From the UHGV virus genome UHGV-0175557: a DNA stretch of 43,714 nt; one strand, given 5' to 3'. A program made the position numbers and the translations under genes. Shown piece after piece: positions 1 through 43,714 of this stretch (its first letter is position 1; each line of letters opens with the position of its first letter). The stretch is from a virus. Below the pieces are notes generated by a model. It was not told the DNA's origin. It did not search any database and saw only the letters and a list, made by a program, of their open reading frames with translations.

Positions 1-116
1 CTACAGGTGCTTCCACTCGTGCTACAGGTGCTTCCACTCGTGCTACAGGTGCTTCCACTCGTGCTACAGGTGCTTCCACTCGTGCTACAGGTGCTTCCAC
101 TCGTGCTACAGGTGCT
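1..116. repeat. 21-bp tandem repeat, about 5.5 copies (unit ctacaggtgcttccactcgtg), lying in frame inside a minus-strand ORF
   Basis: Unit restarts at 1, 22, 43, 64, 85 with a partial copy from 106; minus-strand translation gives EAPVARV heptad repeats. Confidence 0.9.
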
Positions 117-673
117 TCACAAACCATCACGTTAAACGGTGTCCAGGTGCCTTCGTATTTTTCAAGCAAATCGACCATTACATTTACACATTCCGGGATC
201 CATCCCCGGCGCAAACCATTCTGAATCCAACTGTCAGTAATTGTGTGTTCATTTAAATTCCTGCGTAACACGTATCTTGCACATTCAAAATTACCGCACA
301 TCGCCTCAAACCGTGTCCACACGTCGTGACCGTGAACAGCTTCCAGGATCTGTGAATCAACGTATCTGACACGTTGCCAGTAGTTATTAGCAAAACGCCT
401 GTGTGGTAATTTCTGACGCAGTTCGGTAACCGGTATTGTGTGTTTAAGAACAATGTTTTCGTCAGAATGTTGTACTGACGAAGGTGACAGTGTGAAGCCA
501 GTAATCTCTTCAAGAATAATACTGATCGTTTCATGTTTAGGATGAAACCTACCGCTCAACCATTGGTTGTAACGACCAACAGTTACCTTAACACCCCGAC
601 GATTAAGGTATTCAACAGCATTTTGTACCCCGCCTTTTAAATCTGTCAATTCGTCTAAAAGGTTCTTTTTCAT
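1..673 (-). CDS. hypothetical protein, 3' end beyond window; N-terminal domain with a possible HTH followed by Ala/Pro-rich EAPVARV repeats
   Basis: ATG at 673..671 (MKKNLLDELTDLKGG...); frame stays open to position 1 on manual reverse-complement translation; not in the ORF track because it runs off the edge; track ORF 253..534 is a shorter alternate frame. Confidence 0.55.
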   Translation of the reverse strand, partial: MKKNLLDELTDLKGGVQNAVEYLNRRGVKVTVGRYNQWLSGRFHPKHETISIILEEITGFTLSPSSVQHSDENIVLKHTIPVTELRQKLPHRRFANNYWQRVRYVDSQILEAVHGHDVWTRFEAMCGNFECARYVLRRNLNEHTITDSWIQNGLRRGWIPECVNVMVDLLEKYEGTWTPFNVMVCEAPVARVEAPVARVEAPVARVEAPVARVEAPVARVEAPV

Positions 674-720
674 TATCACACCCTTCTTGTTTGACCACGG
701 ATAAATCATAACGCGCGTTA

Positions 721-1219
721 GCAGCTAGTGCAAGATGTGCTTTATATGTTAGTGTATTTACACCTAAAGCATGTTGTGCTTTAGCAGCTAGTGCAAGATG
801 CACGTTGTGTATTAACTGTTAGTGCATGTTGTGCATCTATGTTGGTACAGCTAGTGCATGTTGTGCTTTATATAGTGCATGTTGTGCATTAAAGTTATAC
901 TTAACATAGATTTCGTCATGTTTATTTTTTAACCAACCCCTCTCTATCTTATTGTTTTTTATTATCTTTTTATAGATAACATAGAAAACATAGATATAAA
1001 GAAGAAGTAGTATAGAAAGATAGAGATAGTACATATAGTGTATTAGCTGTAAATAGAGCTAAAATAAAAGTCTGGGGGGATACCTATTGTAATCTATGTT
1101 TTTATGCAAGTCTTTGAAATCATTGTGATTATGGGTTACGTATTTATGTACGTGATCGAAAATTAGTGCATGTTGTGCACTAACTGTAAACTTAATACTA
1201 ACATTGTATTAGCTGTAAA
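721..1219. repeat. iteron-like direct repeats in a 612-bp intergenic control region (15-mer TAGTGCATGTTGTGC x4, GCAGCTAGTGCAAGATG x2, GTATTAGCTGTAAA x2)
   Basis: 15-mer copies near 820, 852, 873, 1164; other motifs at 721/784 and 1040/1206; lies between divergent gene starts at 673 and 1287. Confidence 0.6.
914..1005. repeat. copy A of a ~90-bp AT-rich repeat (about 92% identical to 19933..20022) with CATAGA(T/A) sub-repeats
   Basis: Manual alignment of cgtcatgtttattttt...ttatctttttatagataacatagaaaacatagata in both regions. Confidence 0.8.
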
Positions 1220-1286
1220 ACAGGGCGTGTGGACAACCCGTGGGTATCTGTGGGAAACTAATTTAAAATTTATGGGAGACAAATTT

Positions 1287-1922
1287 ATGAAAATTTCAGA
1301 CCGGGCTAAAAGGGCTGCTCTGGAGTTGTCGCCGGAACAGCTTAAGTTCGCCAACCTGTGGTTAGATCGTGTCAATAACGGCTTCAGCAATACGCGATGT
1401 GTTTTAGAGGCTTATCCGGGTCACACATCTGACGCAGCGGCTGCAACGACCGCACACCGCCTCCTGTCGAATACAAAGGTATTGAACTATCTGGACGCGA
1501 TGGGAAGCCATGCGTTGGAGTCTGTCGGGGAATCATTAACGAGTCGTGTCGAGTGGTGGAAACGAGCGGCAAGCACGGCTGAAGAATTACTGGAACCGTA
1601 TTGTCAGCGCGTAATCGTCCCTGGTGAAGACGACACAGAAGCGAAACACTTGTGGGTGAACAGTACCGACGATATCCCCAGCCATCTGCAACAGTACGTA
1701 GTTTGCTACAAACGTTACATGCTGGGCGGATACATTCTGGTGACACGTGAACTGTTCGATCCGAAAACTCGTGCAAAAGCGTCTGAACAACTGGATAAGA
1801 TCACCGGGAACAGTATCGACCGTGTGGAATTGTCTGGTGTGGTTGGTAACGTGGTTCAGACTGTTCCTGAAGGTGCAACTATCGACGACATCGCACAACT
1901 GTATCAGAAGGCGCTTAAATAG
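1287..1922 (+). CDS. terS: terminase small subunit (Terminase_2-like HTH)
   Basis: ATG 1287 with GGGAG 8 nt upstream; motif LSPEQLKFANLWLDRVNNGFSNTRCVLEAYPG...AHRLLSNTKVLNYL matches the TerS pattern LTPKQ..F...Y...N.T.A...AGY as recalled; track ORF 1170..1922 starts earlier. Confidence 0.6.
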   Translation: MKISDRAKRAALELSPEQLKFANLWLDRVNNGFSNTRCVLEAYPGHTSDAAAATTAHRLLSNTKVLNYLDAMGSHALESVGESLTSRVEWWKRAASTAEELLEPYCQRVIVPGEDDTEAKHLWVNSTDDIPSHLQQYVVCYKRYMLGGYILVTRELFDPKTRAKASEQLDKITGNSIDRVELSGVVGNVVQTVPEGATIDDIAQLYQKALK

Positions 1923-2010
1923 GCGGTTGTTTCGGCTTAAACCGTGCCGGAAACCGTTTGCGTTTTCGATAAACAGGGTTGAGTAGTGCGATGGTACAGG
2001 GTAGAGTGTT

Positions 2011-2034
2011 AAAGCCCCTTGCGGGGCGTTTTAG
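2011..2034. terminator. intrinsic terminator hairpin between convergent genes (gcccc-ttgc-ggggc then gtttt)
   Basis: GC stem 2014-2018/2023-2027, T-run 2028-2032, A-run upstream; sits between terS stop and stop of minus ORF 2031..2237. Confidence 0.5.
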
Positions 2035-2237
2035 AGCTTATCACGTAAATTTGCTATTTCGCTCATTGCTGAAAACATGTTTGATTTCATGCGATCAGAT
2101 TTTTCGATACGACATTTATCGTTGATTATAGAAATGGCGATATTGAAAGCCTCAATTTTCGCTTCTTTTATCGCTTGTTTACGGGGTTTTTGTTTTACCT
2201 TCGGTATTTCACGAAGGCATTTTGGAACATAATTCAT
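2031..2237 (-). CDS. hypothetical protein (68 aa, basic)
   Basis: ATG at 2237, start overlaps upstream stop (TAATG); no similarity recognised. Confidence 0.4.
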   Translation of the reverse strand: MNYVPKCLREIPKVKQKPRKQAIKEAKIEAFNIAISIINDKCRIEKSDRMKSNMFSAMSEIANLRDKL

Positions 2238-43109: not shown

Positions 43110-43125
43110 AATAAAACCCTGATAA

Positions 43126-43146
43126 GTAAATGGGGCACTATGGCCC
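43126..43146 (-). promoter_or_regulatory. conserved 5'-UTR hairpin copy 1 (GGGGCCATAGTGCCCC on minus strand), about 20 nt upstream of the polymerase ATG
   Basis: 21-bp segment identical to 43426-43446. Confidence 0.5.
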
Positions 43147-43155
43147 CGTTTTCAG

Positions 43156-43410
43156 TTATGAACGCTTATTAACCCATTCATTATATAACCGATCACTTTC
43201 TTCTTTTGTAGAAGCGCGTGCAAATCGCCATCCGTAACCGTTTTGCACTTCATACGCGAAATAAAATTTACCAAAATTTTCACGGGAAGTTCTTAAAACG
43301 CTATTAAATCTTTTTTGAATCACTCCGTGTTTCTTTACGTATGACAATTGGTCTTTTAAAGATAATTTTTCAAACATTTCTTGTTCTTGTACAAATTGTT
43401 CTTGATTCAT
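43156..43410 (-). CDS. hypothetical protein (84 aa)
   Basis: ATG 43410 with GAGG 8 nt upstream; the track start at 43437 is GTG and lies inside the hairpin. Confidence 0.5.
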   Translation of the reverse strand: MNQEQFVQEQEMFEKLSLKDQLSYVKKHGVIQKRFNSVLRTSRENFGKFYFAYEVQNGYGWRFARASTKEESDRLYNEWVNKRS

Positions 43411-43425
43411 CTTATACCTCGTTGA

Positions 43426-43446
43426 TAAATGGGGCACTATGGCCCC
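43426..43446 (-). promoter_or_regulatory. conserved 5'-UTR hairpin copy 2
   Basis: Identical 21-mer TAAATGGGGCACTATGGCCCC (plus-strand reading). Confidence 0.5.
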
Positions 43447-43488
43447 ATGTCTGTTTAAAGCGGTATATCGTCCCAGTTCCAGTAACTA

Positions 43489-43714
43489 TCAGTAACCGTT
43501 ACCGTTGAGAAAATTCGGGGCCGGGGTGGTCATTACCATATAACCGTTAGCGATCAGTTGTTCATCGTTCCAACCTTGCGCAATAAACTGTTCGTAAGTT
43601 GCACCACCTGCTTTTTCAGTCATTACTTTTACAGGTGCTGCCGCTGGTGTAGGCGCTGCTACAGGTGCTGCCGCTGGTGTAGGCGCTGCTACAGGTGCTG
43701 CCGCTGGTGTAGGC
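43489..43714 (-). CDS. C-terminal part of a protein with PTPAAAPVAA repeats and a small C-terminal domain; 5' end beyond window
   Basis: Minus-strand frame open from the window edge to TGA at 43491..43489; ends ...TYEQFIAQGWNDEQLIANGYMVMTTPAPNFLNGNGY; not in track because it runs off the edge. Confidence 0.55.
   Translation of the reverse strand, partial: PTPAAAPVAAPTPAAAPVAAPTPAAAPVKVMTEKAGGATYEQFIAQGWNDEQLIANGYMVMTTPAPNFLNGNGY
43631..43714. repeat. 30-bp tandem repeat x2.8 (acaggtgctgccgctggtgtaggcgctgct) encoding the Ala/Pro-rich linker
   Basis: Direct reading; shares the 12-mer GCTACAGGTGCT with the 21-bp repeat at 1..116. Confidence 0.9.

Follow-up and report, generated by a model that had tools for sequence, protein, structure and literature searches.

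A conserved promoter and variable small-gene islands among the packaging and head genes of a 9NA-like siphophage of E. coli

Packaging and head genes and the small-gene sets between them

The window analysed here, the whole stretch of 43,714 nucleotides, covers roughly three quarters of the genome of its phage, a virulent siphophage of E. coli in the 9NA-like group (Nonanavirus/Sashavirus). Its packaging and head genes stand in canonical order on one strand, each as its own short transcription unit, and the gaps between these genes are occupied by hyperplastic islands of small genes, most of them on the opposite strand. Genes were called with a self-trained gene model, assigned to families by Pfam and PHROG searches and checked against the annotation of the nearest relative. 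Consistent with a preliminary description of this DNA, the gene model, both family searches and the relative's annotation place terS, terL, portal, the Mu-F-like head protein gene and the capsid-to-tail block on the plus strand:

1287-1922, plus strand: terS, small terminase (phrog_51, E 8e-11; matches AVIO78A_001; 83-99% conserved in relatives)
6954-8717, plus strand: terL, from the annotation of the nearest relative, with a terminator at 8726-8743 after the gene
12324-13679, plus strand: portal
17575-18534, plus strand: Mu-F-like head morphogenesis gene (PF04233), preceded by a hairpin at 17546-17569
20175-35362, plus strand: capsid-to-tail block, from the gene model and the relative's annotation
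20519-20929, plus strand: XkdF-type protease, within the capsid-to-tail block
22608-23627, plus strand: major capsid protein, within the capsid-to-tail block

Four minus-strand islands lie between the head genes, as had been described, though some limits had to be shifted: island 4 starts at 18531 and not at 18787, so that it and the stop codon of the head gene overlap by 4 nt (18531-18534). The RdgC, dUTPase, membrane protein and lipoprotein genes attributed to these islands were all recovered, through Pfam and PHROG matches and through transmembrane (TM) and lipobox predictions:

2031-6624, minus strand: island 1, 16 small genes including RdgC, with three class-I promoters (see below) and patchy presence in relatives
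2867-3781, minus strand: RdgC (PF04381, E 5e-116)
4999-5094, 4656-4871 and 11243-11404, minus strand: membrane proteins of islands 1 and 2
10962-12182, minus strand: island 2, 5 genes including a 3-TM protein and a Zn-ribbon protein
10962-11237, minus strand: 3-TM membrane protein of island 2
11398-11733, minus strand: Zn-ribbon protein of island 2
13713-16169, minus strand: island 3, 7 genes including dUTPase and a 2-TM protein
14061-14405, minus strand: 2-TM membrane protein of island 3
15503-16006, minus strand: dUTPase (E 2e-18)
18531-19725, minus strand: island 4, 5 genes including a lipoprotein
18952-19332, minus strand: lipoprotein with a signal peptide and the lipobox LTAC

For 18952-19332, PHROG gives the label "recombination directionality factor", which is implausible for a protein with a signal peptide and lipobox and was not accepted. 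The picture of a minus-strand island at each junction holds for these four positions, but it is incomplete, since small-gene sets on the plus strand interrupt the head genes too:

8880-10764 (region 8752-10764), plus strand: island of four genes, not present in related loci L005-L007 and L009-L013
16277-17531, plus strand: small genes including NinH, from the gene model and relatives
17207-17401, plus strand: NinH (PF06322, E 2e-18)
20175-20522, plus strand: third plus-strand set

Rfam and tRNA scans of the window gave no matches. An AT-rich segment at 19924-20030 is duplicated, with 90% identity, at 905-1014 upstream of terS, and an equivalent AT-rich duplication is seen in 9NA and in Proteus phage 2207-N35.

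Two putative promoter types and the convergent junctions

The conserved promoter proposed for the islands is real. The 17-mer TTAAAATAATTCTTGAC lies at the head of or inside every minus-strand island, with seven exact copies in the window, all on the minus strand, and nine matches when up to three mismatches are allowed, against 0.31 expected by chance. It is followed by GATTACA and then by a TAnnnT -10 box, with TAnnnT 17-18 nt after TTGAC in all eight aligned copies, and together the UP-like TTTAAAATA, the -35 box TTGAC, GATTACA and TAnnnT make up a near-invariant element of ~25 nt. This class-I element is a strong sigma-70 type promoter, and its copies are distributed as follows:

6843-6889, minus strand: class-I promoter heading island 1 (17-mer at 6873-6889, -10 box TATAGT)
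4647-4693 and 2455-2501, minus strand: further island 1 copies, 17-mer matches
12207-12253, minus strand: class-I promoter heading island 2, 17-mer match
16198-16245 and 14430-14476, minus strand: island 3 copies, 17-mer matches
19772-19818, minus strand: class-I promoter heading island 4, 17-mer match
20104-20150, plus strand: copy with one mismatch (17-mer at 20104-20120), upstream of 20175-20522
8756-8765, plus strand: degenerate copy AATTCTTGAC, immediately after the terL terminator

The 17-mer is invariant, and its positions identical, in 13 related loci, and its equivalent in Proteus phage 2207-N35 is TTTAAAATATGGCTTGACAGATTACA. In AVIO78A, two tandem copies (44857, 44920) lie directly upstream of the helicase-to-DNA-polymerase operon, and further copies at 50214 and 52179 precede small genes on the plus strand. 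The promoter heads every minus-strand island, as had been claimed, but it also occurs on the plus strand (8756-8765, 20104-20120). No terminator separates the copy at 20104 from 20175-20522 and the protease-scaffold-capsid genes downstream; this copy, confined together with gene 20175-20522 to the Sasha-like subgroup, reads into the capsid operon, and an early-type promoter may contribute to capsid gene transcription in this subgroup.

The structural genes are preceded by a second motif. Class II, CGTGnTAnAnT, is an extended -10 without a -35 box located 29-43 nt upstream of structural gene start codons; in the form CGTGNTAWAHT it has six matches in the window, all on the plus strand, versus 0.83 expected. 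The looser TGnTAnnn[TC] is found 20-46 nt upstream of 11 of the 34 plus-strand genes, where 2.5 were expected and 5000 randomisations never gave as many; among the minus-strand genes it precedes 3 of 37. The sites before structural genes include:

6912-6922, plus strand: class-II motif CGTGGTAAACT before terL, invariant in relatives
12275-12284, plus strand: extended -10 CTGATATAAC, 40 nt upstream of the portal start codon
17534-17544, plus strand: class-II motif CGTGATATAAT before the Mu-F-like head gene
24484-24494, 25696-25706 and 28510-28520, plus strand: class-II motif matches in the capsid/tail block

Relatives conserve this motif before terL, portal and the Mu-F-like gene, and 9NA-type genomes also before the protease gene; CCCGTGGGTATCT, upstream of terS, is only a loose match to the class-II consensus. 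A first guess at the late motif, CCCGTGGKTAWMCTGT, was dropped as too narrow, its six matches being no clear excess over the 2.0 expected. The two promoter types are distinct in build, with UP, -35 and -10 elements in class I and an extended -10 without -35 in class II, and they show opposite strand and gene-class preferences.

Hairpins were found at three of the convergent junctions and within island 1:

2014-2028, no strand assigned: junction 1 hairpin, 5-bp GC stem with weak U-tracts
2507-2526, no strand assigned: internal bidirectional hairpin of island 1, beside the class-I copy at 2455-2501
10937-10956, plus strand: junction 2 hairpin, with a U-tract for plus-strand transcripts only
13686-13707, no strand assigned: junction 3 bidirectional terminator, z -5.3 (plus) and -3.5 (minus), U-tracts on both sides

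At junction 4, between the head gene and island 4, a hairpin was sought and none was found. Closure of the islands by bidirectional hairpins, as first described, is thus fully seen only at 13686-13707, the hairpins of junctions 1 and 2 being weak or one-sided. These junctions bear on whether orientation is itself functional, such that island transcripts would converge on the 3' ends of late genes and repress them early through antisense RNA or transcriptional interference. The weak U-tract at junction 1, the junction 2 hairpin with no U-tract for minus-strand transcripts, and junction 4, with its overlapping genes (18531-18534) and no terminator, would all suit such a role. Junction 3, however, carries a strong bidirectional terminator directly after portal, and island 2 converges on a dispensable plus-strand island rather than on a structural gene, and we regard repression of this kind as improbable.

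Conservation of the layout and turnover of the islands

Nucleotide identity to the window is 95.9-96.4% (~96%) for AVIO78A, PDP46 and KarinMuster, about 88-94% for Sasha, Sergei and Solent, and 81-84% for 9NA, with matches syntenic across the whole window. Membership in the 9NA-like group is borne out by this identity and synteny and also by gene layout, a canonical assembly order with many small genes between, as in the annotations of 9NA and AVIO78A. Gene order, minus-strand islands and promoter positions are shared with these phages at 81-96% nucleotide identity, whereas the island gene set of the window is its own: 11955-12182 has no homologue in the related loci examined, and 2031-2425 is common to one locus only. 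The comparison with nearest relatives that had been suggested for finding variable cassettes points to the islands as the variable part of the region. On average, a minus-strand island gene (n = 32) is found in 4.2 of 8 relatives and a structural gene in 7.7 of 8, and GC content is 0.413 in the island genes versus 0.469; 11 of the 32 occur in two or fewer relatives, 2 in none and 6 in all eight.

Thirteen related loci show the same layout, as does Proteus phage 2207-N35 with a portal of 60% identity, and layout and promoter are also found together in 9NA, Klebsiella-type relatives and Proteus Gorganvirus. Visibly chimeric loci apart, the islands keep the same orientation at each position throughout the related loci, as far away as the Proteus phage. 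The locus L010, with island 1 inverted, has inversions at both ends of the contig and a terL cut short at the joint, and for this reason it was set aside as a fold-back chimera. The preliminary description had named an assembly artefact as one finding that could undo its picture; this is ruled out, because the same layout and promoter are present in relatives, including isolated, sequenced phages. In a wider sense, an alternation produced by misassembly, inversions or spurious minus-strand ORFs is extremely unlikely: the window does end in tandem repeats, as an incomplete contig, and the metagenomic contig L010 does look chimeric, but order and orientation are the same in the isolates AVIO78A, 9NA, PDP46, KarinMuster, Sasha, Sergei, Solent and Proteus 2207-N35, and the ORFs of the minus strand show coding potential, Shine-Dalgarno sites and, for most of those tested, PHROG or Pfam family matches.

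The alternating layout is real and conserved, yet it is already a known hallmark of the 9NA-like group, small genes interspersed among the 9NA assembly genes having been noted before (Casjens et al. 2014, PMC4153490). Our results refine the description of a known group and leave the current understanding of phage genome organisation unchanged. We found no mention of the two promoter classes or the duplicated control region, and no data on transcript timing, in the 9NA-like phage literature searched, Zeng et al. 2019 lying outside that search; papers on AVIO78A, PDP46, Sergei, Proteus phage PM-CJR, FSL SP-062/069 and plasmid-dependent phages likewise make no mention of strand layout or promoters. 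The case shows a small virulent phage keeping an ordered, essential head-gene core while more than 13 kb of accessory genes between turn over.

Homology breakpoints suggest how this turnover may proceed. Thirteen of 82 fall within 15 nt of a class-I promoter or strong hairpin, versus 3.5 expected, an excess that is partly to be expected because such conserved elements are homology islands in diverged sequence; the remaining 69 lie at ordinary gene boundaries. Breakpoints common to many loci include 6866 (7 relatives) and 12195 (10 relatives), and identity between paralogous promoter regions is 93-100% over stretches of 45-67 nt, with gene conversion between paralogous copies. Because many sites, and all relatives, carry the class-I promoter and some of the hairpins in identical form, we propose that these promoters and some terminator hairpins may double as recombination joints, at which island segments would be swapped between co-infecting phages in the manner of T4-like PeSL cassettes, keeping the structural core fixed while island content turns over.

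PeSL cassettes and hyperplastic regions were described in T4-like myoviruses (Arbiol et al. 2010, PMC2839356; Comeau et al. 2014, PMC4122927). There, a stable stem-loop acting as terminator or attenuator is integral to every PeSL, and recombination between PeSLs produces indels, replacements and mini-circles. Like those hyperplastic regions, the islands hold variable small genes, mostly of unknown function, amid conserved core modules. The class-I element resembles the PeSL in being a repeated, conserved, strong sigma-70 early-type promoter whose -35 box follows an AT-rich stretch (TTTAAAATAATTCTTGAC, 17 nt, TAnnnT; eight copies and one degenerate copy in the window), and in heading or lying within variable islands in every copy. 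Indel and replacement breakpoints are enriched at the elements, though most breakpoints lie elsewhere. Fusion to a terminator stem-loop is seen in some copies (2485-2526, 8726-8765), but here the likeness is partial, as an adjoining stem-loop is found at two of nine class-I promoters (2507-2526, 8726-8743) and the other seven are without a GC-rich one. Unlike the T4-like systems, the phage is a 57-kb siphovirus and not a myovirus, its islands separate individual head genes and for the most part run on the opposite strand, and recombination at the repeats is deduced from sequence comparison.

A further parallel is offered by the morons of lambdoid phages, reportedly described by Hendrix and colleagues. 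Like morons, the islands sit within the late region with their own promoter and sometimes a terminator, at a GC content below that of their neighbours (0.413 versus 0.469). Morons, however, are usually single genes with non-conserved regulatory flanks (PMC2839356), whereas the units in the window are multi-gene islands at fixed positions with one conserved promoter and some group-wide core genes.

Timing of expression and candidate island functions

The explanation that we favour overall, and consider probable, is that the class-I islands are early, the class-II structural genes late, and the islands swapped at promoter joints. We infer the timing from promoter type and from the genes that the promoters precede. 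Unmodified host sigma-70 RNA polymerase would fire class-I promoters early, so that island genes would be made together with the replication genes, and the class-II motifs before each structural gene or operon would be candidate late promoters, still open to use should -35 recognition be shut down or an activator arise. The division into early and late by strand, as initially proposed, is supported in part, by the distinct promoter types and by class I at the AVIO78A replication operon, but class-I copies also drive plus-strand genes, and strand is therefore only a rough proxy for timing.

Those same plus-strand copies (8756 and 20104 in the window, 50214 and 52179 in AVIO78A) fit a scheme with no temporal partition, in which class I would be a strong constitutive sigma-70 promoter, serving whatever genes are inserted at all stages of infection, and island orientation a harmless frozen accident of moron-like insertions. 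The copy at 20104 feeds the capsid operon, plus-strand islands exist beside the minus-strand ones, and the more distant Vibrio phage 1.268.B has the genes that lie between terL and portal on the plus strand, all of which would agree with such a scheme. We nevertheless think it rather doubtful, given that island orientation is constant in non-chimeric related loci as far as the Proteus phage (portal 60% identical), that the -35-less motif is enriched specifically before plus-strand structural genes, and that class I heads the replication operon.

The early/late programme could be joined with the PeSL-like joints in a more speculative scheme, which we put forward tentatively and think somewhat unlikely in its entirety. 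An island-encoded factor would block sigma-70 region 4, as AsiA does, silencing the -35-dependent early promoter while the -35-less extended -10 promoters before the structural genes stay active; the invariant promoters would double as joints, extending the PeSL-like mechanism from T4-like myoviruses to small siphoviruses; and the duplicated operator-plus-AT-rich region upstream of terS and the capsid operon would serve as a late control element. Pfam, PHROG, PDB and AlphaFold2 (AF2) model searches identified no regulator or anti-sigma candidate among the island proteins.

Pfam and PHROG searches likewise revealed no characterised anti-defence or host-shutoff homologue among the island genes, the matches being to RdgC, dUTPase, NinH and families of unknown function only, and PDB sequence searches with four island proteins returned nothing informative. 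The AF2 model of the Zn-ribbon protein 11398-11733 (pLDDT 79.6) has no PDB match, its only resemblances being to small, uncharacterised proteins from T4-like and jumbo phages, and that of 14468-14725 (pLDDT 63) is too poor for a structure search. The BASEL study found KarinMuster, a near-identical phage, to be sensitive to Old and to restriction-modification systems (PMC11990801). The island genes, above all the six common to all eight relatives compared, form a short list for host-takeover screens, and the two promoter classes, if confirmed, would allow early and late genes to be told apart by sequence in this poorly studied group of phages. Its laboratory-cultivable members include 9NA and KarinMuster/Bas82 of the BASEL collection, and the plasmid-dependent PDP46 also belongs to the group.

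Gene order in the window and its conservation

In megablast searches of both halves of the window against GenBank phages, identity was 95.9–96.4% to Escherichia phages vB_EcoS_AVIO78A (the nearest complete relative, hereafter AVIO78A), PDP46 and KarinMuster_Bas82 and to Sashavirus BDX09P1, ~88–94% to Salmonella phages Sasha, Sergei and Solent, and 81–84% to the type phage 9NA. As all of these matches are syntenic, we place the window within the 9NA-like siphophages (Nonanavirus/Sashavirus). The genome is incomplete, with perfect tandem repeats at both ends. Since ~14.7 kb of AVIO78A, lying between the DNA-polymerase region and terS and holding a helicase, a primase and many small plus-strand genes, is absent from the window, these repeats are probably where the contig broke. 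They occupy 1–118 (21-nt unit, 5.6 copies) and 43630–43714 (30-nt unit, 2.8 copies), both contain GCACCTGTAG, and both lie within minus-strand genes.

Gene prediction trained on long ORFs from the window itself, compared with the AVIO78A and 9NA annotations, confirmed the preliminary description of plus-strand packaging and head genes split by four minus-strand sets of small genes (islands 1–4). The coordinates first assigned stood for all features except island 4, which starts at 18531, overlapping the preceding head gene at its stop codon.

Packaging and head region of the window (gene model, unless other evidence is named)
1287–1922, plus strand, terS (gene model; Pfam/PHROG)
2031–6624, minus strand, island 1, 16 genes
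6954–8717, plus strand, terL
8880–10764, plus strand, four small genes after terL
10962–12182, minus strand, island 2, 5 genes
12324–13679, plus strand, portal
13713–16169, minus strand, island 3, 7 genes
16277–17531, plus strand, 4 small genes before the Mu-F-like gene
17575–18534, plus strand, Mu-F-like head gene (gene model; Pfam/PHROG)
18531–19725, minus strand, island 4, 5 genes
20175–35362, plus strand, uninterrupted block
20519–20929, plus strand, XkdF-type prohead protease (Pfam/PHROG)

This island architecture has been described before in an established phage group, to which the window adds a new member: small genes interspersed among the 9NA assembly genes were already noted by Casjens et al. 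(PMC4153490), and the opposite-strand gene sets are visible in the GenBank annotations of AVIO78A and 9NA. The architecture is real, conserved and moderately unusual. What may go beyond the descriptions of the group consulted here is the two-class promoter pattern, the invariance of one promoter out to Proteus phages, the evidence from breakpoints and gene conversion, and a duplicated, putative control region upstream of terS and the capsid operon.

To assess conservation, we compared 11 loci around portal homologues from IMG/VR, together with AVIO78A and 9NA, scoring gene presence by tblastn and averaging it over the eight genomes in which the region is covered in full. The cassettes proved variable, with patchy island genes set among near-universal structural genes. 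Structural genes were found in every locus reaching them, at 83–100% identity (mean presence 7.7/8, 93.5% identity, GC 0.469), compared with a mean presence of 4.2/8, 82.8% identity and GC 0.413 for the 32 minus-strand island genes (median length 73.5 aa). Only six of these 32 occur in all eight relatives, while 11 are found in at most two and two are absent from all. Structural genes are on the plus strand throughout, and island orientation is constant at each position, in every locus but the metagenomic L010 (IMGVR_UViG_3300022758_000167), whose terS and island 1 are in inverse orientation and fused to mid-terL, with the capsid end inverted as well. Since both of its ends are flipped and terL is cut short at the joint, L010 looks like a fold-back chimera, and we treat it as one rather than as a true rearrangement.

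The same layout extends to more distant phages. Proteus phage 2207-N35 (Gorganvirus; portal 60% identical) has five minus-strand islands, headed by a recognizably homologous promoter, TTTAAAATATGGCTTGACAGATTACA. Vibrio phage 1.268.B (portal 42% identical) carries small genes between terL, portal, the Mu-F-like gene and the capsid genes, with minus-strand sets after portal and after the Mu-F-like gene. Because the layout recurs in close and distant relatives, out to these two phages, an assembly artefact is excluded, and the comparison indicates that the architecture is old and stable in the 9NA-like lineage.

Promoters, terminators and predicted timing

The 17-mer TTAAAATAATTCTTGAC has exactly seven exact copies in the window, all on the minus strand, with upstream (5') ends at 2501, 4693, 6889, 12253, 14476, 16245 and 19818 (copies are named here by position, as in P2501). 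When up to three mismatches are allowed, there are nine matches in the window vs 0.31 expected. The aligned copies show (G/A)nATT(A/G)C after the 17-mer and a TAnnnT hexamer 17–18 nt downstream of TTGAC, features that identify this class-I element as a predicted sigma-70 promoter with a UP-like proximal element. The conserved promoter first proposed to drive each island is borne out at the sequence level, with one copy heading each of the four islands and extra internal copies in islands 1 and 3. The 17-mer is invariant at matching positions in all loci, even at only ~85% portal identity. There is also a plus-strand copy with one mismatch at 20104–20120 (P20104) and a degenerate one, AATTCTTGAC, at 8756–8765, immediately 3' of the terL terminator.

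Several further elements of this kind were seen. Two divergent class-I promoters form a perfect 24-nt inverted repeat (19794–19817/20105–20128). On the plus strand at 41233–41249, a degenerate 17-mer of class-I type, TTTAAATAATTCTATAC, falls inside the minus-strand replication operon, just upstream of the DNA polymerase gene; it is conserved at this place in 9NA and AVIO78A and may serve as an antisense promoter or bind a protein. After the capsid genes, a 480-nt non-coding gap (24023–24523) holds a plus-strand class-I-like TATTCTTGAC and a 23-nt inverted repeat (24354–24376/24411–24433). The corresponding site 3' of the capsid gene in the Proteus phage is occupied by a minus-strand gene that has a class-I promoter, and the gap may be what is left of a lost island.

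Bidirectional terminators had been proposed for the convergent island borders (junctions 1–4), but only junction 3 (13686–13707) has a strong hairpin with a U-tract on either side. Junction 2 (10937–10956) has a U-tract for plus-strand transcripts only, junction 1 (2014–2028) a 5-bp GC hairpin with short U-runs, and junction 4, where the convergent genes overlap, no structure (z +1.25). The remaining bidirectional hairpins lie away from convergent junctions, at 2507–2526 within island 1 and at 8726–8743 after terL. At 17534–17569 and 23637–23670, an extended −10 box directly precedes a terminator hairpin, which places the predicted transcription start within the hairpin's 5' arm; upstream read-through would terminate there, and transcripts begun at these boxes would be unable to form the hairpin. 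The stem of the hairpin at 17546–17569 is kept in relatives while its loop varies, and the Shine–Dalgarno sequence of the Mu-F-like gene falls within its 3' arm.

The structural genes have a different, class-II motif, an extended −10 element. The consensus CGTGNTAWAHT has six matches in the window, all on the plus strand, vs 0.83 expected, and four of them lie 31–34 nt 5' of the starts of terL, the Mu-F-like gene, the gene at 25740 and the tape-measure gene. Near variants are found upstream of portal (CTGATATAAC), the gene at 24523 (CGTGCTAATAT) and the holin gene (CTGATATAAT). More broadly, TGnTAnnn[TC] occurs 20–46 nt upstream of 11 of 34 plus-strand genes vs 2.5 expected, a number reached in none of 5000 randomizations (shifted control windows gave 0–4), and upstream of 3 of 37 minus-strand genes. 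No recognizable −35 box accompanies the extended −10 sites upstream of plus-strand structural genes. Relatives share the motif 5' of terL, portal and the Mu-F-like gene, and in 9NA and Klebsiella-type loci the form CCCGTGGTTAACT lies directly upstream of the protease gene.

A temporal programme would be expected to show such a split into two promoter classes along gene-class lines, and the proposal of early islands and late structural genes is thus partly supported. In AVIO78A, the minus-strand operon running from helicase to DNA polymerase is immediately preceded by a tandem pair of class-I copies (44857, 44920), tying this promoter to genes needed before late expression. Extended −10 promoters are independent of −35 recognition, as known from E. 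coli and from work on T4 AsiA, so loss of −35 recognition would be a reasonable candidate mechanism for an early/late switch. The equation of strand with timing does not appear to be strict. Counting against it, plus-strand class-I copies precede both the 8880–10764 island and gene 20175–20522, the latter with no terminator between it and the protease, scaffold and capsid genes, and AVIO78A has more plus-strand copies (50214 and 52179) upstream of small-gene clusters. P20104 and gene 20175–20522 form an insertion that is limited to the Sasha-like subgroup and replaced the class-II promoter found in 9NA.

Two copies of an A+T-rich segment of ~110 nt, 90% identical to each other, lie 5' of terS (905–1014) and 5' of the capsid operon (19924–20030). 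Equivalent duplications occur in related loci L005–L007, in 9NA (71 nt) and in Proteus 2207-N35 (268 nt, 97% identity). In the window it is flanked by operator-like palindromic repeats of the TAGTGCATGTTGTGCACTA type (720–900, 1027–1219 and 19828–19909); operator-like repeats border the duplication in 9NA and 2207-N35 as well, with a motif particular to each phage. The duplicated segment may function in late control or as an origin of replication.

Homology breakpoints and possible recombination in the islands

Where homology between the window and its relatives begins or ends, it tends to do so at gene borders, the usual picture for mosaic phages. Of 82 breakpoint clusters, 13 come within 15 nt of a class-I promoter or strong hairpin vs 3.5 expected (P < 1e-4), as do 11 of 69 in the islands alone vs 4.4 expected (P about 0.004), though part of this excess is trivially expected since conserved elements stand out in diverged sequence. 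Two of the most widely shared breakpoints are 6866, common to seven loci and just downstream of the P6889 −35 box, and 12195, common to 10 loci and within the P12253 leader. The 8880–10764 island is deleted in three relatives, with the deletion starting exactly at the terminator–promoter composite (8750).

Paralogous promoters are also alike well past their −35/−10 boxes in some pairs: P2501 (2459–2503) and P14476 (14434–14478) are 93% identical over 45 nt, and two copies in locus L013 (5963–6029 and 9871–9937) are 100% identical over 67 nt. Identity beyond the functional boxes suggests gene conversion between islands.

These features recall the PeSL cassettes of T4-like phages, in which conserved strong early promoters fused to stem-loops, located in hyperplastic regions, mediate modular shuffling (PMC2839356, PMC4122927). 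The likeness lies in conserved promoters within variable regions and in the enrichment of breakpoints at the window's elements. Unlike PeSLs, however, only two of nine window promoters have a stem-loop, and recombination is inferred, so the resemblance is functional and not one of membership.

Proteins encoded in the islands

Pfam/PHROG searches confirmed the predicted rdgC (E 5e-116) and dut (E 2e-18) genes, as well as NinH, and simple sequence analysis upheld the membrane proteins and lipoprotein. Beyond RdgC, dUTPase and NinH, nearly all island proteins fall in PHROG/Pfam families of unknown function or in none, and sequence searches of four proteins against the PDB gave nothing informative. 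One conserved island protein (11398–11733, minus strand) has an N-terminal Zn-ribbon and a beta-domain, with homologues solely on contigs of 9NA-like size. Its AF2 model (pLDDT 79.6) had no PDB match, and the modelled beta-domain recurs in T4-like and jumbo phages, in small proteins that are uncharacterized (BFVD, E 4e-6).

The preliminary description favored the islands as homes for host-takeover or anti-defence functions. Such a role is plausible for early, variable small genes, though the Pfam, PHROG and PDB searches above lend it no support. The BASEL study found KarinMuster markedly sensitive to restriction–modification systems and Old, and saw no recognizable supplementary locus (PMC11990801).

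The lipoprotein (18952–19332, minus strand; lipobox LTAC) matches Pfam Phage_VG64 (E 1e-45), occurs only in the closest relatives and may act in superinfection exclusion; because it is a secreted lipoprotein, its PHROG 478 label, "recombination directionality factor", is implausible. In the dispensable plus-strand island, 8880–9578 encodes a Gly/Gln/Cys-rich protein with a C-terminal CC and 9629–9988 an acidic His-rich protein (HHHHHYHHGHH), both of which are found in just three related loci.
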